Source of the DNA: a phage
Strand: one strand, 5' to 3'
NCBI GenBank assembly: GCA_024683775.1
Contig: GCA_024683775.1_4106.1
DNA length: 64,000 nucleotides
Part shown: positions 24,373 through 34,086 of the stretch, piece by piece
Position numbering within the stretch: the first letter of the stretch is position 1
Layout of the letters: every line of letters starts with the position of its first letter
Notes under the pieces: model-generated
What the model was told of the DNA's origin: nothing
What the model saw: only the letters and a program-made list of their open reading frames with translations
Database searches by the model: none
Made by a program: the position numbers and the translations under genes

Positions 24373-24379
24373 AAGAAAA

Positions 24380-24412
24380 GGGTTGACTTCGGTCGGCCCT
24401 TTTTGCTATAAT
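24380..24412 (+). terminator. dual terminator-promoter element
   Basis: GGGTTGAC-TTCG-GTCGGCCC hairpin, T-run, then TATAAT. Confidence 0.65.
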
Positions 24413-24438
24413 CATTTCATCAACTACTGGAGGCAAAC

Positions 24439-24852
24439 ATGTTAAAAGTTATTTTCCGTTCTATCAGTTCATTACTTCTTATGATTAGTTCAGTTTCTTA
24501 TGCAAATGAAGTATCTGACTTGTTTGAGAAGAATTACCCAACTGCACAAGAGATGGGTGTTTTAAAATGCAAGCTAACTTCGTACAACATCATCGGCAGT
24601 AAACTTGTACTGGAACATGAACGTAGTACACCAATCCCTCTAGTAGAAGAAGGCAGTACCTTTAGCTTCAAGTACGGGGTGAACGTAACATCTGGTGTAA
24701 TGAACAATGTTGATGCAGAGACTGGTTCAACATGGAGTACTAGCGGTAAAGATGTGTTTCATCGTATGCGTGAAAATGGTAAACTGAAGTACGTATATGA
24801 AAGTTCATTCATGAAACGTGTATTCATTATAAAAAATTGTGTACCAGCATAA
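24439..24852 (+). CDS. hypothetical secreted protein
   Basis: signal-peptide-like N-terminus. Confidence 0.5.
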   Translation: MLKVIFRSISSLLLMISSVSYANEVSDLFEKNYPTAQEMGVLKCKLTSYNIIGSKLVLEHERSTPIPLVEEGSTFSFKYGVNVTSGVMNNVDAETGSTWSTSGKDVFHRMRENGKLKYVYESSFMKRVFIIKNCVPA

Positions 24853-25148: not shown

Positions 25149-25487
25149 ATGGAACATCATTTTGAATTAATTAATAAGGTATCATTTTATGTAGTATCGT
25201 TAATTTGGGTGTATTACATGTTTTGTTACATTATTGCATTCTTCCGATACACAACCTTGTATCAACGCATATACTACGATGCACCCATTTCATTTATGAT
25301 GTTCTGTGCATGTACGTGGGGGATAATTGAAGCACTGGTATGTGGATATAGTACTGACGAATTAAATCTCGTATCGGGGTTGACATTACTAACAATTGCC
25401 ATTATGATAGCTACTGTTCCGATATTTTTGCTCTTTAAACTGCTTCATCGTATTGATGAGTGGCGTAATAAAATCCCTGAAAAGTAA
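25149..25487 (+). CDS. small membrane protein, paralog family B member 1
   Basis: 3-4 hydrophobic segments; C-terminal EWRNKIPEK tail shared with paralogs. Confidence 0.55.
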   Translation: MEHHFELINKVSFYVVSLIWVYYMFCYIIAFFRYTTLYQRIYYDAPISFMMFCACTWGIIEALVCGYSTDELNLVSGLTLLTIAIMIATVPIFLLFKLLHRIDEWRNKIPEK

Positions 25488-25496
25488 GGATTGATA

Positions 25497-25838
25497 ATGA
25501 TTTTTTACACTAATGCGTTTGCTTATGCCGTTGCATCAATCTACATTGTGTACTTCTTATTTGGTGGAGTACTGTACTTCTTTAAGTACAAAACATTGTT
25601 TAACCGAATGTATCCAAATCATCCAATTGTAGTAGTACTTTTGATTATTTCTGTTGCTCACATCATTGTAGAAACAATAATGGGTATCAGTGCAGTACAT
25701 TACAGTCTAGGTACTATTGTAATTATTACTATGATCATCGCATACATTTTAGTAATGGGTTTTGGTTTATTTGGAAATGTAGCAATGAAATTGTATAATC
25801 GAATCAAAACATTACGTGATAATCTACCGGAGCGTTGA
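25497..25838 (+). CDS. small membrane protein, family B member 2
   Basis: C-terminal LRDNLPER tail; ATG at 25497. Confidence 0.55.
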   Translation: MIFYTNAFAYAVASIYIVYFLFGGVLYFFKYKTLFNRMYPNHPIVVVLLIISVAHIIVETIMGISAVHYSLGTIVIITMIIAYILVMGFGLFGNVAMKLYNRIKTLRDNLPER

Positions 25839-25839
25839 G

Positions 25840-26184
25840 ATGTATAATTTAAATTTAATATCATATATCATAACAACACTGTTTACTTTCTATGCCTTTG
25901 TTGGTATACTCCTACTGTACTTTAAATTTTATAAACTTTTTGATCGTTTTTATCCGTCATTAGAACATGAATTCTTATTAGTGATGTACATATGTCTAAC
26001 GTTTATGTCTACATTTTTCACTGCATCTGATGGTATCATTGGTATTAAAGCTGAAGAACCAAATGGGAGTACGCTTGTTGCCTTTATTCTGGTAGGATTT
26101 TTCAGTACTTATATTACCTTTATTTCAGGATGTACCGTGATTGATTATCTTGTGAAATTACGAGATAAAATGCCAAATCGATAG
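25840..26184 (+). CDS. small membrane protein, family B member 3
   Basis: C-terminal LRDKMPNR tail; ATG at 25840 with GGAG RBS. Confidence 0.55.
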   Translation: MYNLNLISYIITTLFTFYAFVGILLLYFKFYKLFDRFYPSLEHEFLLVMYICLTFMSTFFTASDGIIGIKAEEPNGSTLVAFILVGFFSTYITFISGCTVIDYLVKLRDKMPNR

Positions 26185-26193
26185 GGGATTGCT

Positions 26194-26451
26194 ATGTTTG
26201 CATTGCGTAATAAAAATACAAAAGAGATTCTGTGTATCTCAACAGTATGGGATTGTGCAGGAAGTGAAATGATTCTCGAAGAAGGTTCAGGTGATTGTGT
26301 TTATGTTGTTCAGGATCGTCGCGAACTGGAATCATTACTTGACGAATTTAATGCTGGTGGAAATCCTAAAAGTACTCAATTCCCTGAGATCAGGAATCCA
26401 GCACCACCAGGCTCTTATGAAATTCTACAACTGTGGGAGATGGATAAGTAA
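26194..26451 (+). CDS. hypothetical small protein
   Basis: 85-aa ORF. Confidence 0.45.
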   Translation: MFALRNKNTKEILCISTVWDCAGSEMILEEGSGDCVYVVQDRRELESLLDEFNAGGNPKSTQFPEIRNPAPPGSYEILQLWEMDK

Positions 26452-26831
26452 TGCGTCAAATGCACAAAGTAACCGAGCTAAACAAGCGTCTGATTAAACA
26501 ATCAATGTTTGAGGATAAAGAGTCTTACTATAACTTCAAACGTGCTGTAGAGGCTGCTATCCACATTCAGAAGCTTAAAGATAGTGGATGTATTATTCTC
26601 GAAAATGGTTCTGACGTTGTTACTGATGACTTCAGTGTAGCGTTTGATGTTTCACCTGATGGTTCGCTATCAATGCCACGCTTAGGGACTGGTGACATGA
26701 CTGTGTGGGTAGGTTTCACTATGGGGAATGTACCAGGCACGGTGTATGTAGATGATGCTGAGTTGAAAGAAAGCTTCAAAAACTTATCGCATCTTGAACC
26801 ACAATACGCACATGAAATGAATTTATTTTGA
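26451..26831 (+). CDS. hypothetical protein
   Basis: 126-aa ORF. Confidence 0.5.
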   Translation: MRQMHKVTELNKRLIKQSMFEDKESYYNFKRAVEAAIHIQKLKDSGCIILENGSDVVTDDFSVAFDVSPDGSLSMPRLGTGDMTVWVGFTMGNVPGTVYVDDAELKESFKNLSHLEPQYAHEMNLF

Positions 26832-26832
26832 G

Positions 26833-26860
26833 TTGACAAACTCATTCAGTACTGTATAAT
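26833..26860 (+). promoter_or_regulatory. sigma70-like promoter TTGACA-N16-TATAAT with CAGTACTG spacer
   Basis: hexamers read directly; followed by leader hairpin GGGGATGA-ACTTC-TCATCCCC at 26870..26890. Confidence 0.6.
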
Positions 26861-26907
26861 GTTTATCAAGGGGATGAACTTCTCATCCCCACAATCGAGG
26901 AATTGTC

Positions 26908-27462
26908 ATGATTACTTTTAAGAAAACTGCTAACCACATCCATGAGATCTACATTAACGGTCACAAAGCTGGCCTTCTTCGTTTACTCGCCCATCATCCG
27001 AATATTACCGTATCTGATAATGAACCTAAAGATTGGCGTGTATTTTTCTTTGGAAAGTACAGTGATTTTCAAGTATCAAACCTGAAGAACATTCGTTCAG
27101 TATGCACGTTAACTGAAATTAAAGAAAAGTTAACCAAAGCATTGAAAACTAATCCAGATAGTGTTCTTCCACCTGATAACTTTGTAGAGAAAGGATATGC
27201 CTTAGCTCATTTCAAAGATGGTACTATTCAATCTATCAGTACTGAATATGAATATCAATGGACTGAGTACTTCACTTATGGATCGCGTAATACATTGATG
27301 GCTTCACGTAGTAAATTGGAAGAAGTACTGACTCGTATGAATGAACGCGAGCGTCAATTTTATGACAAACCAGAAATGTGGAGTTCAACTTACATTGACC
27401 GTATTGACTATGTTATTATGACTCCAATCTTTGACACTGCTTACTATGATTCTTTGAAATAA
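26908..27462 (+). CDS. hypothetical protein
   Basis: 184-aa ORF downstream of promoter and leader hairpin. Confidence 0.55.
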   Translation: MITFKKTANHIHEIYINGHKAGLLRLLAHHPNITVSDNEPKDWRVFFFGKYSDFQVSNLKNIRSVCTLTEIKEKLTKALKTNPDSVLPPDNFVEKGYALAHFKDGTIQSISTEYEYQWTEYFTYGSRNTLMASRSKLEEVLTRMNERERQFYDKPEMWSSTYIDRIDYVIMTPIFDTAYYDSLK

Positions 27463-27473
27463 GGATAACTTAT

Positions 27474-27650
27474 ATGAAACTACGTACTCGTAATCGACTG
27501 ATGGATGCACTGTACCATGAACAGCTTTCACTGAATGAAGTGAAGCGTCAGTTAATGTACACATATCTGTTACCCGCTCGCATTGCAAAACAACGTGCTA
27601 AAGAATTGCTGAAAGAAGCAATCGAGTACTGGGAATCTGATTCGTACTAA
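27474..27650 (+). CDS. 58-aa hypothetical protein (below ORF-track cutoff)
   Basis: ATG at 27474 filling an otherwise empty gap; hand translation MKLRTRNRLMDALYHEQL... Confidence 0.35.
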   Translation: MKLRTRNRLMDALYHEQLSLNEVKRQLMYTYLLPARIAKQRAKELLKEAIEYWESDSY

Positions 27651-27678
27651 TTGTCACGTTAATTAAGTGAGGCGATAA

Positions 27679-27930
27679 ATGAAAATTTTATTAGTTCTAA
27701 TACTACTAATTGTTTTACCATTTACGTTAGTATCCCCTGAACTTGCATGGAATGTGTTTGTGTACTTACTATGTACTATTGTAGTAAATGGTATCTTGTT
27801 CTTAGTTCTATTCATAAATGGAATAGGACACGGTGGAGGATGGACCAGTACTGCTGATATTGTACATAAAACCACTATGTCTTTATTTGTAGTGTGGAAT
27901 TTATTCTGGACTTGGTTTGTGTTCTTCTAA
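27679..27930 (+). CDS. hypothetical small membrane protein
   Basis: 83-aa ORF with hydrophobic segments. Confidence 0.45.
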   Translation: MKILLVLILLIVLPFTLVSPELAWNVFVYLLCTIVVNGILFLVLFINGIGHGGGWTSTADIVHKTTMSLFVVWNLFWTWFVFF

Positions 27931-27939
27931 TTAAAAAAT

Positions 27940-28311
27940 ATGAATATAGATTTGAAAGGTGCAACCCGAACTGTCATACTCATTGGGGAATATGCTATCA
28001 AGATTCCAACCTTTAAAAGTTGGAAGCTATTCTTAACAGGGATGATAGCTAACCTCAATGAACGTTCTTGGATGCAGTACTCCAAGCGTAGTGATAGTGG
28101 TATCTGCCCTACGTTGTGGTCATCATGTACTGGACTAGTAACTGTACAGAAACGTTGTAAGCCAGTACAACATAGGGGTTTATTTTGGGTGGAGTTGTGT
28201 GCTTTAGCATTGGATTCAGAGTTGAGTACTGACTTCTTCTATTCAGATGCGAAGCCAGAAAACTTTGGGTATCTGGGTGGTAAGTTAGTTAAACTTGATT
28301 ATGGAGATTAA
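27940..28311 (+). CDS. hypothetical protein
   Basis: 123-aa ORF. Confidence 0.5.
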   Translation: MNIDLKGATRTVILIGEYAIKIPTFKSWKLFLTGMIANLNERSWMQYSKRSDSGICPTLWSSCTGLVTVQKRCKPVQHRGLFWVELCALALDSELSTDFFYSDAKPENFGYLGGKLVKLDYGD

Positions 28312-28312
28312 T

Positions 28313-28600
28313 ATGTACGCACTGTATAATAAAGAAAAGAAACAATTTGCTAAGGTTGAAAAATCGATTGATACATTTGGCATGTTTAAGTACTGTATTG
28401 TGACGGACCCATATGCTAACTTGTATTACGTTCTTGATGACGTATCAGTACTGCAACGATTGCTTGAACGTTCCAAAAGCCAATGCCAAGGTATCCATGA
28501 TGGTTCAACTTATGAAACACCTGAGTGTTCCTATGGCTATCTGGATGGGTATGAGATTGTGAAGTTGGGTGCATTGTTGAATAAATGGATTAAACAATGA
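28313..28600 (+). CDS. hypothetical protein
   Basis: ATG at 28313 with GGAG RBS. Confidence 0.45.
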   Translation: MYALYNKEKKQFAKVEKSIDTFGMFKYCIVTDPYANLYYVLDDVSVLQRLLERSKSQCQGIHDGSTYETPECSYGYLDGYEIVKLGALLNKWIKQ

Positions 28601-29010
28601 AGAAGTGTATCACGTGTAATATTGAAAAAGACATTAGTGAATTTGGTATAAGAAGTGATACTGGGAAACATAGAAATACATGCAAAGGTTGTAGTAATAT
28701 TACCAGTAAGAGAACCAGAAATAAAAAAACTGATGTAAAAACACTTGAAGAAATCAAAAGAAAAAATAAAGATTTCATGACCAGAGTTAAATCATTTTAT
28801 GGTTGTAGTGTTTGTATGATGAAGTATCCAGAATGTTTAGACTTTCACCATCTTGACCCTAATACCAAAGAACATACACCAAGTTCTATGTTCAGTAAAA
28901 GTCGAGAATCTATCAAAGATGAAATTCGAAAGTGTATGATTCTTTGTTCTAATCACCATCGCATGGTACATTCTGGTAGACTATGTTTGATTGAAAGAAA
29001 AAAGGGTTGA
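28597..29010 (+). CDS. HNH endonuclease
   Basis: CxxC zinc-knuckle pairs plus DFHHLDP ... CSNHHRMVH motif; stop codon lies inside the downstream terminator stem. Confidence 0.65.
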   Translation: MKKCITCNIEKDISEFGIRSDTGKHRNTCKGCSNITSKRTRNKKTDVKTLEEIKRKNKDFMTRVKSFYGCSVCMMKYPECLDFHHLDPNTKEHTPSSMFSKSRESIKDEIRKCMILCSNHHRMVHSGRLCLIERKKG

Positions 29011-29036
29011 CTTCGGTCAGCCCTTTTTGCTATAAT
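29004..29036 (+). terminator. dual terminator-promoter element
   Basis: GGGTTGAC-TTCG-GTCAGCCC hairpin, T5, then TATAAT 18 nt after the embedded TTGACT. Confidence 0.7.
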
Positions 29037-29064
29037 CATTTCATCGAAACGAGAGGATGAATAC

Positions 29065-29580
29065 ATGACACGCATTAACTTAGTACACGTTAAAGAACTT
29101 GCTGACCAACATCTGATGGCTGAATATCGTGAACTCCCACGTGTGTTTGGTGCTGTACAAAAACATGTTCAAGCACGTAAGCGAGTCCGTGATTTCAAAA
29201 TTAACAGTACTTACCTGTTAGGTTCAGGTCATGTAACATTCTTCTACAACAAGTTATTGTACTTACAGAAGCGTCATATTGATATTGTTAACGAATGTTT
29301 GCGTCGTGGGATGAAGATTCAAAACACTGAAGTAAACGACATTAGCGGATTCCCTACTGAGTTTTGTAATGACTACGTACCATCGGAGTCAGAGATTAAA
29401 ATGTCTCGTGAGCGTTTGATTGAGAAGCTACAGATGAAGCCTACGTGGTATAAGTTTACTGATGTTGAACGCCCACAGTACGTTAAAGATATGCAGGACG
29501 TAAGTAGTAATATAGAATCTAGTACTGATATGTTCGACGAAATTGAAGAACAAATCAAAGATGAAATGAATAATTATTAA
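29065..29580 (+). CDS. denV: pyrimidine dimer DNA glycosylase (T4 endonuclease V homolog)
   Basis: N-terminus [35 protein letters not shown]...GHVTFFY matches the T4 endoV sequence as I recall it; carries an extra acidic C-terminal extension. Confidence 0.88.
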
Positions 29581-29587
29581 AGGTAAG

Positions 29588-29619
29588 GGTTGACTTCGGT
29601 CAGCCCTTTTTGCTATAAT
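29588..29619 (+). terminator. dual terminator-promoter element
   Basis: GGGTTGAC-TTCG-GTCAGCCC hairpin, T5, then TATAAT. Confidence 0.7.
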
Positions 29620-29647
29620 TATTTCATCAACTGATGAGGATAACGAA

Positions 29648-30418
29648 ATGACCAGAGAAGCCCGTAGCATTCAAATCCAGAAAAACTTCAACTCCATGAT
29701 GGTTGCTCTTGAGTGTTTGCTCGATGATAGCAGTACTGTAAAAAGTATGGTTGTCAGCGGTGCACCTGGTGTTGGTAAGACTTACACCCTGTCACAACGC
29801 CTCCAGAAAGCTCATGACGCAGCAGAATGGAACGTAGCTACTATCAGTGGTAAGATGACTACTCTTGCTCTGTATGAAGTTCTGTACAAGAATCGTCACA
29901 GCACCAACGTATTAGTACTGGATGATATGGACAGCATCTTTGATTCAGAAGACGGTATGAACCTGCTCAAAGCAGTACTGGACAGCGGTAAACGTACTGT
30001 GTCTTACATGACTAGCTCTAAGTACTTAACTACCAACGGTATCCCTAACAGCTTTGATTTTAACGGTCGTATCGTATTCATTACTAACAAAGATTTGGCA
30101 CTGAATGCTAAAGCTAAAACCAAAATGTCTGCTCACTATGCTGCTCTTATGTCTCGCTCTGTGTATGTTGACTTACAGATCCAGACTAAAAGCGATATCA
30201 TGATTCACATTGAAAACGTAATGAACAAGACCAACATCCTGTCAACTAAAGGTGTTAATAGTAATGGTAGCAAAGCAATCCTGAATTGGATGCTGAAACA
30301 TGAAGATGCACTTCGTGCTCCTTCACTGCGTATGCCTCTGTTGATTTCAGCAGTATACAACAACAACCCGTATGATTGGGAAGAGCAGTGCGAAAACTTG
30401 TTCCTTGAGAAAATTTAA
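29648..30418 (+). CDS. P-loop NTPase (AAA-type ATPase-like)
   Basis: Walker A GAPGVGKT and Walker B-like VLVLDDMD. Confidence 0.6.
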   Translation: MTREARSIQIQKNFNSMMVALECLLDDSSTVKSMVVSGAPGVGKTYTLSQRLQKAHDAAEWNVATISGKMTTLALYEVLYKNRHSTNVLVLDDMDSIFDSEDGMNLLKAVLDSGKRTVSYMTSSKYLTTNGIPNSFDFNGRIVFITNKDLALNAKAKTKMSAHYAALMSRSVYVDLQIQTKSDIMIHIENVMNKTNILSTKGVNSNGSKAILNWMLKHEDALRAPSLRMPLLISAVYNNNPYDWEEQCENLFLEKI

Positions 30419-30427
30419 TTACATGTA

Positions 30428-30456
30428 TTGACAGTACTACCATAGTGTAGTACTAT
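30428..30456 (+). promoter_or_regulatory. sigma70-like promoter TTGACA-N17-TACTAT
   Basis: hexamers read directly upstream of the family B cluster. Confidence 0.5.
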
Positions 30457-30485
30457 AACTTAATATTCACCACCGGAGATACGAT

Positions 30486-30824
30486 ATGCTTGAGTTTTTT
30501 AATTCAGATACAATGCTTAGTATTACTTTGATTTATCTGTTTGGTTTTTTCTTTTATCATGCACTAGTTGTAGTACTATGGTATTTTAAAAAGAAAATCG
30601 TTTTCAAACTGTATCCTGATGGAAACATTTCACTACTTCTTTTCACTATTATCCAAGGTATGTTTGCAATTGTTGGTCTTATCGCACACTTAATTTATTG
30701 TGCTAATCCACAGTTGAACTCAATATCACAATATATTGTATTCCTTGGATTACTAATTTGGGTGCTGATATACTTGTTTAATCTCATCATTAATGGTAGA
30801 GCAAAAATTCGTGGGGACTTCTAA
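30486..30824 (+). CDS. small membrane protein, family B member 4
   Basis: hydrophobic segments; basic C-terminus. Confidence 0.5.
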   Translation: MLEFFNSDTMLSITLIYLFGFFFYHALVVVLWYFKKKIVFKLYPDGNISLLLFTIIQGMFAIVGLIAHLIYCANPQLNSISQYIVFLGLLIWVLIYLFNLIINGRAKIRGDF

Positions 30825-31171
30825 TGTTTGAATCTTATCTTGAGTTTTTAAAGAGTAGTTCTGTTGCACATTCAATTGCAGGGATTATTCTAACAGGTTA
30901 TGTAACATTTTGGGTAGTTATGTTTCTAGGATGGTATTTTAAACGACAATTCTATAAGCGTAATGGTGAAGATTTTATGAATTCTTTCATTAATCAATCG
31001 TTGTTTGCATCAACATTGATAGCATGTATTGTAGCAACACTCACAGGAAAGGTACTGCCAGCATTCTCCGCAGTTTACGGTACATTGGGTATGATATGTG
31101 TAGTTTTTTACTTGACCATTAAACTTTGTTGTGTTATGATTGAACTTCGAAACAAGATACCGGAGGAATGA
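30824..31171 (+). CDS. small membrane protein, family B member 5
   Basis: C-terminal ELRNKIPEE tail. Confidence 0.55.
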   Translation: MFESYLEFLKSSSVAHSIAGIILTGYVTFWVVMFLGWYFKRQFYKRNGEDFMNSFINQSLFASTLIACIVATLTGKVLPAFSAVYGTLGMICVVFYLTIKLCCVMIELRNKIPEE

Positions 31172-31506
31172 TGGAATATTTTTTACACTTACTGCCGTGG
31201 TATATGAAAGTTAGTACTATGTACTATATTCTTAGTGCTGGATTCTACTTTCTGATGTGGTTCTTCAAACGACCAATTTCAGTATTCATCTCTGATAACA
31301 TGCTGCAATTAAAATTACACGCATGGTTTGGTATGGCGATGTTCATGCCTATTATTCACTACTCAATGATTAGTAGAGGGTTCCGTTCCAATGGTGAACC
31401 AATTATATTAGTATTCTATTGGGGTTCAACTATTGCATATGTAAGTTTGTTGTTGTTCCCAGTCGTTCATAAATTACGTGCTAAAGTTCCTGATGCGAGG
31501 TACTAA
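31168..31506 (+). CDS. small membrane protein, family B member 6
   Basis: C-terminal KLRAKVPD tail. Confidence 0.55.
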   Translation: MMEYFLHLLPWYMKVSTMYYILSAGFYFLMWFFKRPISVFISDNMLQLKLHAWFGMAMFMPIIHYSMISRGFRSNGEPIILVFYWGSTIAYVSLLLFPVVHKLRAKVPDARY

Positions 31507-31820
31507 TGGATATCGTAACATTGATTTACACGCTTTATTCATTCTATTTTATTATGTGTTGGGTTGGATTTTTATTTGTATTGAAGATGTTTGATTATGT
31601 TGAAAAACAGATAAAAGAATTTTGTATTCCTTTTATTGGGTCAACCATAATTAGTATTACTTGTTTGTATTATTTGGTATGTGATCCACCTGTTAATACA
31701 GCAATGATTGACTTCATGTTATTACCAACAACTGTTATTTTTTTATGTAGTCTGATGCCACCGATTAGTCGTGGGCTAACCGAATTTAGACGCAATCAAA
31801 AGCGTAAACGAGGGATGTGA
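31506..31820 (+). CDS. small membrane protein, family B member 7
   Basis: hydrophobic segments; basic C-terminus. Confidence 0.5.
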   Translation: MDIVTLIYTLYSFYFIMCWVGFLFVLKMFDYVEKQIKEFCIPFIGSTIISITCLYYLVCDPPVNTAMIDFMLLPTTVIFLCSLMPPISRGLTEFRRNQKRKRGM

Positions 31821-32188
31821 TGGAAATTGCACTTATTATATTAACTGCTATGTTGTTTATTAGTACAATTGTTATTATTGGCAAGTTCTTCTGTGTATCC
31901 TTCTTGGAAACCGTATACGATGAAATTGCTGATGACTATGAATTACATGCAGGATTTTTTACTACGTATTGGATTAGTTTATTACTACTTATCACTGTAT
32001 GGATTTTACATATATTCAAATGGGGTATGGTAGATGGTGATCCAGTACTGGCAATTATCTGTGTAGTGTTTGGTCTACTCGGTGGTGCTGTCCATAATCT
32101 GATGGTAATTTGGCAAACCGTACAATATGTATTAGTTCCACATTTTCAGAGAATGCACCAAAGCATCAAATACCGCAAACGAGGATAA
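31817..32188 (+). CDS. small membrane protein, family B member 8
   Basis: hydrophobic segments; basic C-terminus. Confidence 0.5.
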   Translation: MMEIALIILTAMLFISTIVIIGKFFCVSFLETVYDEIADDYELHAGFFTTYWISLLLLITVWILHIFKWGMVDGDPVLAIICVVFGLLGGAVHNLMVIWQTVQYVLVPHFQRMHQSIKYRKRG

Positions 32189-32189
32189 C

Positions 32190-32552
32190 ATGAATAATAT
32201 TGAATTATCTTTTATTGGTCAATTAATGGTAATGGCGTATACATTTATCTTCTCACTGAATGCATTCGTGTGCATTGGGAAATACTTCCATAAGCGACCA
32301 TTATCAAATATATATGATGTAATACAAAGGAGATATAGTCCAGCATATACTGTGTTGAGTACAGCATTCAATTTTGGTTTTATTCTAATGCTGGTTGCAT
32401 TATTAACATCGAGTTCGAATTTTATAACATTTGGTATTATGGTATGTTCACTAACACTGTGTGTGGTTATTCTCTGTGCATCCGTTGAGTTGCTGGCATG
32501 GATGTATAATAAGATTTCCGAAATCCATGAGCGTTTAGGTAAGAGGAACTAA
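32190..32552 (+). CDS. small membrane protein, family B member 9
   Basis: hydrophobic segments; basic C-terminus. Confidence 0.5.
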   Translation: MNNIELSFIGQLMVMAYTFIFSLNAFVCIGKYFHKRPLSNIYDVIQRRYSPAYTVLSTAFNFGFILMLVALLTSSSNFITFGIMVCSLTLCVVILCASVELLAWMYNKISEIHERLGKRN

Positions 32553-32553
32553 A

Positions 32554-32925
32554 ATGAGTTATCGTGAAATATTTTCGATCATTACTATTATTGTGTTTAG
32601 TTTAGGTTCTTTGATTTGGTTATTGTATTACTTCTGTGTAACCCCAGTATATAATATGCTAAATTCAGTTCGCTCTGATGTTGGTATTGTTTCTTTTATT
32701 ATCTTCATGGCATATTATATGCTAAGTATCACAGGTTTGGTTTCGGTTGTTATCTTTGACCTTGGACCGAATCAAGATGGCATGGAGATGTGGGAATTGA
32801 TAACGATGTTTGCATGTATGATACCTGCATTTGGTGTATGTGCTGGTGTATTTTATGGGTTGTGTAAAGGTGTGAACTACTTAAAAAATATCCACAATAC
32901 TATTCGTAAAAAACGTATGTTATAA
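32554..32925 (+). CDS. small membrane protein, family B member 10
   Basis: hydrophobic segments; basic C-terminus. Confidence 0.5.
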   Translation: MSYREIFSIITIIVFSLGSLIWLLYYFCVTPVYNMLNSVRSDVGIVSFIIFMAYYMLSITGLVSVVIFDLGPNQDGMEMWELITMFACMIPAFGVCAGVFYGLCKGVNYLKNIHNTIRKKRML

Positions 32926-32961
32926 TAAAAAATCCAGTACTATAATAGTACTGGATTAATT

Positions 32962-34086
32962 TTAATTATCTAAGCCACCAATTACACTGAACTGTGTGGT
33001 AACGTCTGAACTATTATCTATGTAAGTTCTTCTACCAACATAATATAGTTGTCCTTTTGCTTGAATAAAAGTTACGGTCCCTGTATTAAATGTTATAATA
33101 TCATTGTATGTAATGTCAGGTGGTAGTGCTGCTGATAACGCAGTAACTTTACTTAATGCAGCACTAGTACTACCATTTATACCAGCAGCAATACTACCAG
33201 TACCATAGAACTTATTATCTTTACCAATGAATACGTTGGCTGATGCTTGTGTAGCTGATGTTATTGCCTTACCAATTTGGAATGCGGTTCCTATGGTGTA
33301 TGGTGTGCTCCTGGCAGCGTCTATGCTTTGTGTATATCCATCCCCTAGCTGACCATTAACTTTGTCACCACATGAGTATAGAGTACCATTGAGGCTGTAT
33401 ATGATCCCACGGTTAGAGAAGCTAACAGCTTCTGCATTAGTCCATACTGGTGCGGTGTATGAGTTTACACGACTCGCGGTAGTTCCTAGACCTAGTATAC
33501 CATATGTGTTATCACCACATCCAAACCATTGCCCAGAACTGTTTTGATAGAACACTGAACGTTCTGTTGATTCCATGCGTACAGCATCCACAGCACCACT
33601 TTTAACGAACGAAGTGGATGAGGATGTAGTACCAGTACCCAATGCACCATAAGTGTTTGTACCAATCGCATAGATTGATCCTAGTGGTGTCATAACACGT
33701 ATGCAGTTATATCCCAATTGAACTTTACATTCAAATAGGTTGTCCCATATTTCAGGAACAGCAGAAAATAAATTTGTAATTTCGAACCATGATGTTGTCG
33801 AACCAGTTAATCCTATACTGCTTTTGTTTCCTAAAATGAAAACAGTTTTGTCCTTCTTAATTATCCATGATGATAGGAAACCTATCTCACAGCTATGAAC
33901 ATTTGATTCTATTTGGGTAATATAATACTTAACTGTGTTATCACCCATGAATGCCGCAGCACCGGATGCAAAAAGGTTTCCAGTTTGTTTATTTAAAATG
34001 TAGTTATTGTTTCCATATACACTAACATCATAAGAACTTTCTTGTTTTTCGTTCCCATAATCAAATAACAATACGAAAGGTAACAT
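32962..34086 (-). CDS. MLPF-leader RCC1-like beta-propeller paralog A1 (FDYGN subtype)
   Basis: N-terminus MLPFVLLFDYGN; GDNTYGILGLG and GDKVNGQLGDG repeat motifs; AAGGAG RBS. Confidence 0.65.
   Translation of the reverse strand: MLPFVLLFDYGNEKQESSYDVSVYGNNNYILNKQTGNLFASGAAAFMGDNTVKYYITQIESNVHSCEIGFLSSWIIKKDKTVFILGNKSSIGLTGSTTSWFEITNLFSAVPEIWDNLFECKVQLGYNCIRVMTPLGSIYAIGTNTYGALGTGTTSSSTSFVKSGAVDAVRMESTERSVFYQNSSGQWFGCGDNTYGILGLGTTASRVNSYTAPVWTNAEAVSFSNRGIIYSLNGTLYSCGDKVNGQLGDGYTQSIDAARSTPYTIGTAFQIGKAITSATQASANVFIGKDNKFYGTGSIAAGINGSTSAALSKVTALSAALPPDITYNDIITFNTGTVTFIQAKGQLYYVGRRTYIDNSSDVTTQFSVIGGLDN

Follow-up and report, generated by a model that had tools for sequence, protein, structure and literature searches.

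Genes and cassettes of the denV locus

The DNA analysed here, referred to below as the window, is a stretch of 64,000 nucleotides (nt) from a phage contig (GCA_024683775.1_4106.1, NCBI GenBank assembly GCA_024683775.1), and the present work concerns positions 26194 to 30418 of it. Three genes of this interval lie on the plus strand among closely packed open reading frames (ORFs): a free-standing HNH endonuclease gene (28597..29010), denV (29065..29580), which encodes a T4-type endonuclease V, and the gene of a NrdC.10-family AAA+ ATPase (29648..30418). A repeated promoter/terminator cassette, of the kind known in T4-like phages as the promoter-early stem-loop (PeSL), separates the first gene from the second and the second from the third. 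Taken as a whole, the locus is in our view probably best explained as a backbone of denV and the ATPase gene, punctuated by PeSLs, that carries a mobile HNH gene and a PeSL-bounded cargo site. The best megablast matches to 26000-31000, which found 64 phage records, are Escherichia phages EC.P1 (98.9% nucleotide identity) and fEgEco12 (98.2%), and 121Q and PBECO4 match at about 90-92%. These identities assign the source of the window to Asteriusvirus, that is, to a 121Q/PBECO4-like, RaK2-like jumbo coliphage of about 350 kilobases (kb). The interval would be part of the early, plus-strand, hyperplastic region of such a genome. The locus was compared with those of 13 Asteriusvirus genomes, Klebsiella phage RaK2 and one Erwinia phage.

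The product of denV is unambiguously predicted to be a T4-type pyrimidine-dimer glycosylase/apurinic-apyrimidinic lyase. In T4 DenV, the N-terminal amine of Thr2 and the residue Glu23 are catalytic, and Arg3, Arg22 and Arg26 contact DNA. These residues are all conserved here, and the segments MTRINL... and AEYRELPRV are identical to those of T4. The protein aligns with T4 endonuclease V (PDB 2END) over residues 1-131 with an expect value (E) of 8e-54, and matches the Pfam family Pyr_excise (PF03013) at 9e-15 (55 bits against a cutoff of 23) and phrog_1183 at 1e-58; the RaK2 homologue is 81% identical in amino acids (aa). Its C terminus carries an acidic tail of 36-40 aa that is not found in T4 DenV and is missing from a short allele of some relatives. 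Two C-terminal alleles circulate in the genus, one of 171 aa with the acidic tail (window, 121Q, UB, BF17, JNE01 and others) and one of about 144-145 aa (phAPEC6, WPEC3, WPEC5 and Turkey5), and similarity to the genomes with the short allele breaks at about 29468; the homologues of RaK2 and T4 have 147 and 138 aa. A derivation of the tail from a fragment of the HNH gene was considered, on the strength of an in-frame similarity of 39 nt (28887-28925 against 29529-29567, 29 of 39 positions, HNH side MFSKSRESIKDEI), and was rejected. By our own estimate, chance alone would give about 0.75 matches of this kind per 10 kb, and the similarity is therefore probably a coincidence.

The ATPase gene encodes 256 aa with a Walker A motif (GAPGVGKT, G38-K44) and a Walker B motif (VLVLDD, D92-D93), in which G38, G41, G43, K44, D92 and D93 are invariant. 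Its matches to several AAA/P-loop Pfam families are sub-threshold or marginal and the PDB sequence search returned marginal P-loop matches only, and a structural model was therefore built and submitted to a fold search. The AlphaFold model, based on 38 homologues, has a predicted local distance difference test score of 93.8 and a standard AAA+ fold, for which Foldseek retrieved RuvB, Orc1/Cdc6, RFC, Hda, DnaA and ClpA at E of about 1e-5 and a template modelling score of about 0.5; this is a generic AAA+ answer that assigns no specific clade or function. From the modelled fold we infer that the protein may be a DNA-associated AAA+ remodeller or loader. A tblastn search found the gene in 1,310 phage records, with identities of 70% in RaK2, 45% in Erwinia Eneladusvirus and about 38% in T4-like phages, the last spanning 94-96% of the length of genes annotated as nrdC.10. 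The matching gene is called nrdC.10 in several T4-like records and mislabelled 'thioredoxin' in others, the RaK2 record notes 'nrdC.10', and the protein falls into phrog_1250, where the match covers profile positions 77-326. NrdC.10 of T4-like phages has been described as a conserved ORF with an AAA motif and of unknown function (PMC1524935). A divergent nrdC.10-like allele, with a protein identity of only 55-59%, occupies the segment 29585-30486 in WPEC3, CMSTMSU, JNE01 and Turkey5. In WPEC3 its flanks are still 98-100% identical to the window, which points to an allelic replacement bounded by the 3' end of denV and the start of a downstream array of membrane-protein genes.

The HNH gene encodes 137 aa at a GC content of 31%. 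It matches phrog_2255 ('HNH endonuclease') at 2.5e-32 and four further HNH PHROGs, and a NCBIfam search with this ORF gave no match. The motifs CSVC...DFHH...CMILCSNHHRMVH (CxxC...DFHH...CxxxCSNHHxxxH) are intact and are conserved in all five aligned copies (the window and four relatives), and inspection suggests catalytic roles for the His...Asn...His residues, which are flanked by the Cys pairs. Similar proteins outside Asteriusvirus are 30-42% identical and are scattered over unrelated phage groups, often beside tRNA genes. Directly upstream lies a conserved small gene, the homologue of 121Q gp216 (phrog_8563; 28313..28600), and the upstream variable site described below begins at its stop. 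In the window the TGA of this small gene and the HNH start codon share bases (ATGA), and the HNH gene shows no obvious Shine-Dalgarno sequence in its start region and no promoter of its own. The overlap of start and stop suggests that HNH expression would be low and translationally coupled to the gp216 homologue. At the other end of the gene, the HNH stop codon (TGA, 29008-29010) lies inside the 5' arm of a hairpin, GGGTTGAC-TTCG-GTCAGCCC.

This hairpin is part of a 33-nt module, GGGTTGACTTCGGTCAGCCCTTTTTGCTATAAT, found with at most one mismatch at 24380, 29004 and 29587, where none is expected from 100 shuffles. The copy between HNH and denV (28999..29064) consists of the hairpin (29004-29023) with flanking A/T runs, followed by the conserved denV leader and ribosome-binding site, and has a predicted -35 element TTGACT at 29007-29012 and an extended -10 element TGCTATAAT at 29028-29036. 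The copy between denV and the ATPase gene (29585..29647) has its hairpin at 29587-29606, its -35 at 29590-29595 and its -10 at 29614-29619. A further copy upstream (24378..24445), likewise on the plus strand, differs at one position of the 33-nt core. A UUCG tetraloop closes the hairpin, which is followed by a U run and for which the folding energy is -17 to -19 kcal/mol, with z about -5. The promoter TTGACT-18-TATAAT with its TG-extended -10 overlaps the hairpin, the -35 lying within the 5' arm and loop. In total, eight copies of the hairpin core are present in the window, all on the plus strand between 9.1 and 29.6 kb, and nine in the matching 46 kb of 121Q.

We identify the module as a PeSL, with predicted promoter and terminator activities. 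As set out by Arbiol et al. (PMC2839356) and Comeau et al. (PMC4122927), PeSLs of T4-like phages are composite sigma70 promoters and terminators that are concentrated in hyperplastic regions, and ORFs are lost, gained or exchanged when copies recombine with one another; their promoter/terminator activity has been measured for RB49 and phi1 only (PMC2839356). The consensus given for nt-1/KVP40 in the second paper is a stem-loop A3-4G3-loop-C3T3-4 with a promoter TTGYVH-N17-TAWWAT (PMC4122927). The segment AAAAGGG-TTGACTTCGGTCAG-CCCTTTTT of our module fits the stem-loop part of this consensus, and the promoter has a spacer of 18 nt in place of N17. When 53 nt of the module were used as a megablast query, 93 records were found, among them KVP40-like vibriophages, Aeromonas phage 65, RaK2 and Erwinia and Serratia Eneladusviruses, and alignments across distant phages (ValKK3, Aeromonas phage 65, RaK2, Erwinia) are near-identical through the hairpin and T run. 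A near-identical core, AAAGGGTTGACTTCGGTCAGCCCTTTT, stands after rIIB in the KVP40-like (Schizotequatrovirus) Vibrio phage ValKK3 (fetched locus 1480-1580), and in Aeromonas phage 65 (fetched locus 1480-1575) the core lies just upstream of a putative ultraviolet-damage repair endonuclease gene. The core is better conserved than any protein common to these distant phages.

A first-pass annotation of the window, made without database searches, had named an HNH endonuclease, a denV homologue and a P-loop ATPase, and had put the HNH stop codon inside a terminator-promoter module. The three plus-strand ORFs and their identities are borne out by the PHROG, PDB, Pfam and motif evidence, and the HNH TGA does fall in the 5' arm of the hairpin. 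The same annotation gave each gene its own copy of the module, which is not right: there are two copies only, one in the HNH/denV gap and one in the denV/ATPase gap, and no third follows the ATPase gene, where a different promoter-like site is found.

A conserved backbone with two variable sites

The genes denV and ATPase occur in the same order in 13 of 13 Asteriusvirus loci, whether or not HNH is present, and a copy of the module or a loop variant of it lies about 40 nt upstream of the ATG of both genes in all 13. The order is also kept in RaK2, as denV, a variable stretch, nrdC.10 and an array of membrane proteins of about 115 aa. For denV, the ratio of non-synonymous to synonymous change (pN/pS) is 0.09-0.19 against 121Q, UB, PBECO4 and phAPEC6 and 0.26 in the closer comparison with fEgEco12; for the ATPase gene it is 0.05 against the same four phages. 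Between the window and UB, the synonymous divergence of HNH, denV and the ATPase gene is 0.06, 0.11 and 0.32, and pN/pS is about 0.37 (relaxed), about 0.1 and 0.05, respectively. Therefore, the three genes have different histories and levels of constraint. On the evidence of order and substitution pattern, denV and the ATPase gene are resident, vertically conserved backbone genes under purifying selection, and HNH is probably the only mobile insertion of the three.

The states of the HNH site among relatives were surveyed by blastn with the 418-nt insert as query. HNH is complete in 10 phage records, is represented by its last 74 nt in seven more and is absent elsewhere. The empty site of 121Q, PBECO4 and Turkey5 reads GAATAAA joined to GAAAAGGGTTGAC, i.e. 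the gp216 stop is followed directly by the module, and in the genomes that contain HNH about 413 nt (28586..28998 in the window) are located exactly at this junction. The 45-codon remnant of phAPEC6 and WPEC5 corresponds to a deletion between two AAGTGTAT repeats within the ORF, and the same 74-nt remnant occurs in five other records. Other DNA is found at the site as well. An unrelated ORF of 89 aa replaces HNH in BF17, Ecwhy_1 and CMSTMSU, and JNE01 has 1.6 kb with three ORFs there. In ph0011, about 3.4 kb of other genes, including a methyltransferase gene, lie between HNH and denV. Presence and absence, the precise empty site, the remnants, the low GC content and the relaxed pN/pS together fit the behaviour of a free-standing, homing-type endonuclease gene, so that we regard HNH as a predicted nuclease and a probable homing element. 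The flanks of HNH are 94-100% identical in nearly all genomes, whatever their HNH state, and what a sliding identity table mainly shows is general mosaicism and the very high conservation of 26.7-28.2 kb. The gp216 allele of the window (28250-28600) is shared with UB at 98.8-98.9%, though UB is otherwise distant and the closest relatives reach only about 92%, and a 2-nt difference in this allele shifts the stop into overlap with the HNH start. The shared allele could be a trace of recombination or co-conversion beside HNH.

The second variable site is the gap between denV and the ATPase gene. It measures 67 nt in the window, fEgEco12, EC.P1 and ph0011, whereas ten other Asteriusvirus genomes have between 2.1 and 4.0 kb here and RaK2 has 5 kb with 15 ORFs. 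Among the 13 relatives and the window, at least 10 cargo arrangements occur. Most of these include a large gene of the PHROG families 'endonuclease', 'HNH endonuclease' or 'homing endonuclease', families which were assigned through PHROGs, a Pfam scan of the relatives' large cargo ORFs being almost uninformative. In vB_Ec-M-J, phAPEC6, Ecwhy_1, BF17 and JNE01, large endonuclease-family genes or unassigned large ORFs end about 10 nt or less from the ATPase-side PeSL. A direct denV-PeSL-ATPase junction is common to only three records, EC.P1, fEgEco12 and ph0011, all of which carry HNH; with so few genomes, two of them closely related, this co-occurrence may simply reflect shared ancestry.

The boundaries of the cargo are precise. 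On the right, 25 records among the matches listed align with the window again from 29585 onwards, where the PeSL begins. On the left, three forms are found. In 121Q, UB, vB_Ec-M-J, Ecwhy_1 and JNE01 a half module ends just after the loop (GGGTTGACTTCGGT joined to (T/C)ACACAAAGG), and a full module stands ahead of the ATPase gene; in BF17 the PeSL is complete, so that full PeSLs flank its 2.8 kb of cargo; and in genomes whose denV is the short allele, divergence sets in at about 29468. The PeSL of the window at this gap matches the relatives' denV-side sequence in its 5' part and their ATPase-side PeSL in its 3' leader, and would therefore be a recombinant or an unsplit junction of the downstream variable site. 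We interpret the gap as a predicted cargo hot spot with junctions in the PeSL core or at its edge. Over 34 kb compared with 121Q, a PeSL core lies no more than 80 nt from three of the six indel sites of at least 50 base pairs and inside a fourth, a count that is approximate because colinear chaining dropped the high-scoring segment pair of the ATPase gene, which has an extra paralogue downstream in 121Q.

Proposed organisation and alternative explanations

We propose that denV and the ATPase gene each form a small transcription unit of their own, separated by PeSL cassettes. Early transcripts made by the host RNA polymerase from the upstream PeSL (about 24380) and from a perfect promoter-like site, TTGACA-16-TATAAT (26833..26860, plus strand), which probably starts the predicted unit 26908-29010 with HNH as its last gene, would run through the small ORFs and HNH. 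The hairpin at 29004 would stop this transcription and the promoter embedded in it would restart it for denV, and the PeSL at 29587 would act in the same way for the ATPase gene. HNH fits precisely into the space from the gp216 stop to the PeSL of denV; it would borrow the TGA and terminator of the latter, with translational coupling probable. The PeSL copies are direct repeats with an identical core of 33 nt, and homologous recombination could therefore gain or lose the DNA between them; in this capacity they would serve as homology patches, where recombination between copies or the insertion of an ORF with its PeSL as a cassette adds or removes DNA. The window has the empty form of the gap, which equals the product expected of a PeSL x PeSL crossover on a BF17-like denV-PeSL-cargo-PeSL-ATPase arrangement, and its sequence would equally suit a state that was never filled.

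Several observations weigh against this organisation. The HNH ORF scores 15.1 bits against Pfam HNH_2, below the 21-bit cutoff, and a PDB sequence search with it found no solved homologue. No clean co-conversion tract is seen around HNH in the sliding identity table, the flanks being highly similar in almost all genomes. The left edge of the HNH insertion is outside any PeSL, the nearest upstream copy being 4.6 kb away; therefore HNH did not arrive by PeSL x PeSL exchange, and its left side probably arose by endonuclease-type or illegitimate insertion. At the gap the data fit an ancestral empty site and a secondary deletion equally well. The enrichment of breakpoints at PeSLs relative to 121Q is only modest (p of about 0.01-0.05 by our own binomial estimate), and could reflect selection for insertions at the borders of transcription units, not a mechanistic hot spot. 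The last point leads to an account in which the module is purely regulatory, neighbouring indels are tolerated at such borders through a selection filter and the PeSL is no substrate of recombination. It would agree with the fact that the HNH insertion and other upstream cargo are bounded on the left by the stop codon of a gene instead of by a PeSL, and recognition by host RNA polymerase alone could explain the conservation of the core across distant phages. Nevertheless, several junctions lie inside the identical core, as in the five genomes whose half module stops at the loop, and the composition of the gap PeSL of the window, with a denV-side 5' part and an ATPase-side 3' part, is what a homologous crossover between repeats predicts. 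Mini-circles formed between PeSLs have moreover been demonstrated experimentally in RB49 and phi1, with some of the RB49 crossovers at the loop (PMC2839356). We therefore consider a purely regulatory role somewhat unlikely. The diverse endonuclease genes repeatedly found immediately 5' of a PeSL also raise the idea, to us quite improbable, that the hairpin is their recognition or landing site. If true, nuclease breaks at PeSLs would drive cassette shuffling and could explain the near-identical core of 30-35 nt in RaK2-like jumbo phages, KVP40-like vibriophages and Aeromonas phage 65, and a PeSL-targeting nuclease would supply the 'specific protein' on which Arbiol et al. speculated (PMC2839356).

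Regarding the HNH gene itself, it might be a useful, domesticated nuclease, directed at host or competitor DNA or acting in repair alongside DenV, that is kept by selection and is not a selfish homing element. Such a role would be in keeping with the intact ORF, with catalytic and zinc-binding residues conserved in every aligned copy, with a pN/pS below 1, and with its predicted co-transcription with early genes beside a DNA-repair gene. Against it, HNH is absent from most genomes of the genus, is reduced to the 45-codon remnant in seven, has unrelated ORFs standing in its place in some and has its relatives, at 30-40% identity, scattered in unrelated phage groups, often near tRNA genes. This is the usual pattern of selfish endonuclease genes, and domestication is therefore unlikely. 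The first-pass annotation went further and read HNH, denV and the ATPase gene as one island, with the endonuclease driving mosaic insertion of its neighbours. The part that stands is that HNH is itself variably present and insertion-like; of its having carried in neighbours there is no sign. The annotation had also named conserved placement of the block in all relatives as evidence against an island, and such conservation is what is found for denV and the ATPase gene, and not for HNH. Adjacency of the three genes, the repeated modules that bracket them, the rarity of the exact arrangement (only three database genomes have denV directly beside the ATPase gene, all with HNH) and their unequal GC content (0.31, 0.38 and 0.42 for HNH, denV and the ATPase gene, and 0.35 for the whole window) could be cited for joint horizontal acquisition with, or mobilisation by, a homing endonuclease. 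However, the synteny of denV and the ATPase gene, which extends to RaK2 and holds regardless of HNH, already contradicts it, HNH and denV are 3.4 kb apart in ph0011, and the ATPase family is present in more than 1,300 T4-like and RaK2-like records, with a synonymous divergence of 0.32 against 0.06 for HNH. The direct adjacency of denV and the ATPase gene is rare because cargo has been lost or is absent, not because of joint arrival, and an island is hardly credible. The composition profile of the window shows no block-like anomaly that would mark one.

Seven small ORFs occupy 26194-28596, all but one of which (27679-27930) are conserved in the Asteriusvirus relatives examined, and they are predicted to be no part of any mobile unit. 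The exception encodes an 83-aa membrane protein that is missing in UB and PBECO4 and present in most other relatives, and has no adjoining PeSL. Tandem arrays of genes for paralogous multi-pass membrane proteins of 104-123 aa flank the block (25149-26184, three genes; 30486-32925, seven genes), and most of these proteins have a basic C-terminal tail, ...R(D/N)K(I/M)P(E/N)(K/R). RaK2 (ORF308-316) and Erwinia phage pEa_SNUABM_47 also keep the array that follows the nrdC.10-like gene. Ahead of this array in the window lies the sigma70-like promoter that differs from the PeSLs, TTGACA-17-TACTAT (30428..30456, plus strand), at which an inverted repeat was not significant (z=-1). Between the end of this array and a convergent, minus-strand RCC1-like gene (32962-34086), a perfect inverted repeat with a 12-base-pair stem (32931-32957) has a terminator-like score on both strands, and the GC skew changes sign at about 33 kb. 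An Rfam scan of 24-31 kb gave two chance matches only, far below threshold.

Relation to known systems

The components of the locus are all of known kinds, i.e. T4 DenV, NrdC.10, free-standing HNH genes and PeSLs. What is modestly new is that they are documented at base level for Asteriusvirus, and that distant phage lineages share a nearly identical PeSL core. No paper in the literature searched mentions PeSLs in RaK2-like phages, and our results extend these elements, so far described in T4-like phages, to RaK2-like jumbo phages of 350 kb, with more than 10 cargo arrangements at one site. They also correct a misreading at the level of annotation, in that denV and the NrdC.10-like ATPase gene belong to the backbone and HNH alone would be mobile. 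The denV/nrdC.10 locus could serve as a natural test bed for PeSL-mediated cassette exchange and for the turnover of homing endonucleases, and could be useful for choosing safe insertion sites in the engineering of therapeutic-candidate phages.

The DenV of the window resembles T4 endonuclease V (PDB 2END, 1VAS) in its end-to-end alignment over residues 1-131 and the conservation of Thr2 and Glu23, and differs from it in the additional acidic tail of 36-40 residues, beside which a short, tail-less allele also circulates in Asteriusvirus. The ATPase shares with T4 NrdC.10 about 38% identity over nearly its full length, membership of phrog_1250 and a predicted AAA+ fold, whereas it lacks about 75 N-terminal residues of the PHROG profile and has a neighbourhood, with denV and the membrane-protein array, unlike that in T4. 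As in free-standing homing endonuclease genes, HNH is a small intergenic ORF with an HNH motif, without its own promoter and of low GC content, which is sporadically present or absent among near-identical genomes and of which degenerate copies occur. It departs from them in that no clear co-conversion tract was found and in that cleavage of a target site and super-Mendelian inheritance are predictions here, and the Asteriusvirus protein is only 30-42% identical to any HNH outside the genus. The cassettes agree with the PeSLs of T4-like phages in combining an intergenic stem-loop terminator with a near-consensus sigma70 early promoter, a leader and a ribosome-binding site, in their many copies in hyperplastic early regions, in the indels between close relatives, the ends of which fall within the element or at its edge and the crossovers of which lie near the loop, and in their near-identical copies in KVP40-like vibriophages. 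They differ in belonging to a RaK2-like jumbo phage, where their activities are predicted, and in the position of the -35 element, which lies inside the hairpin here, whereas in the published figure legends the stem-loop stands just upstream of the promoter.

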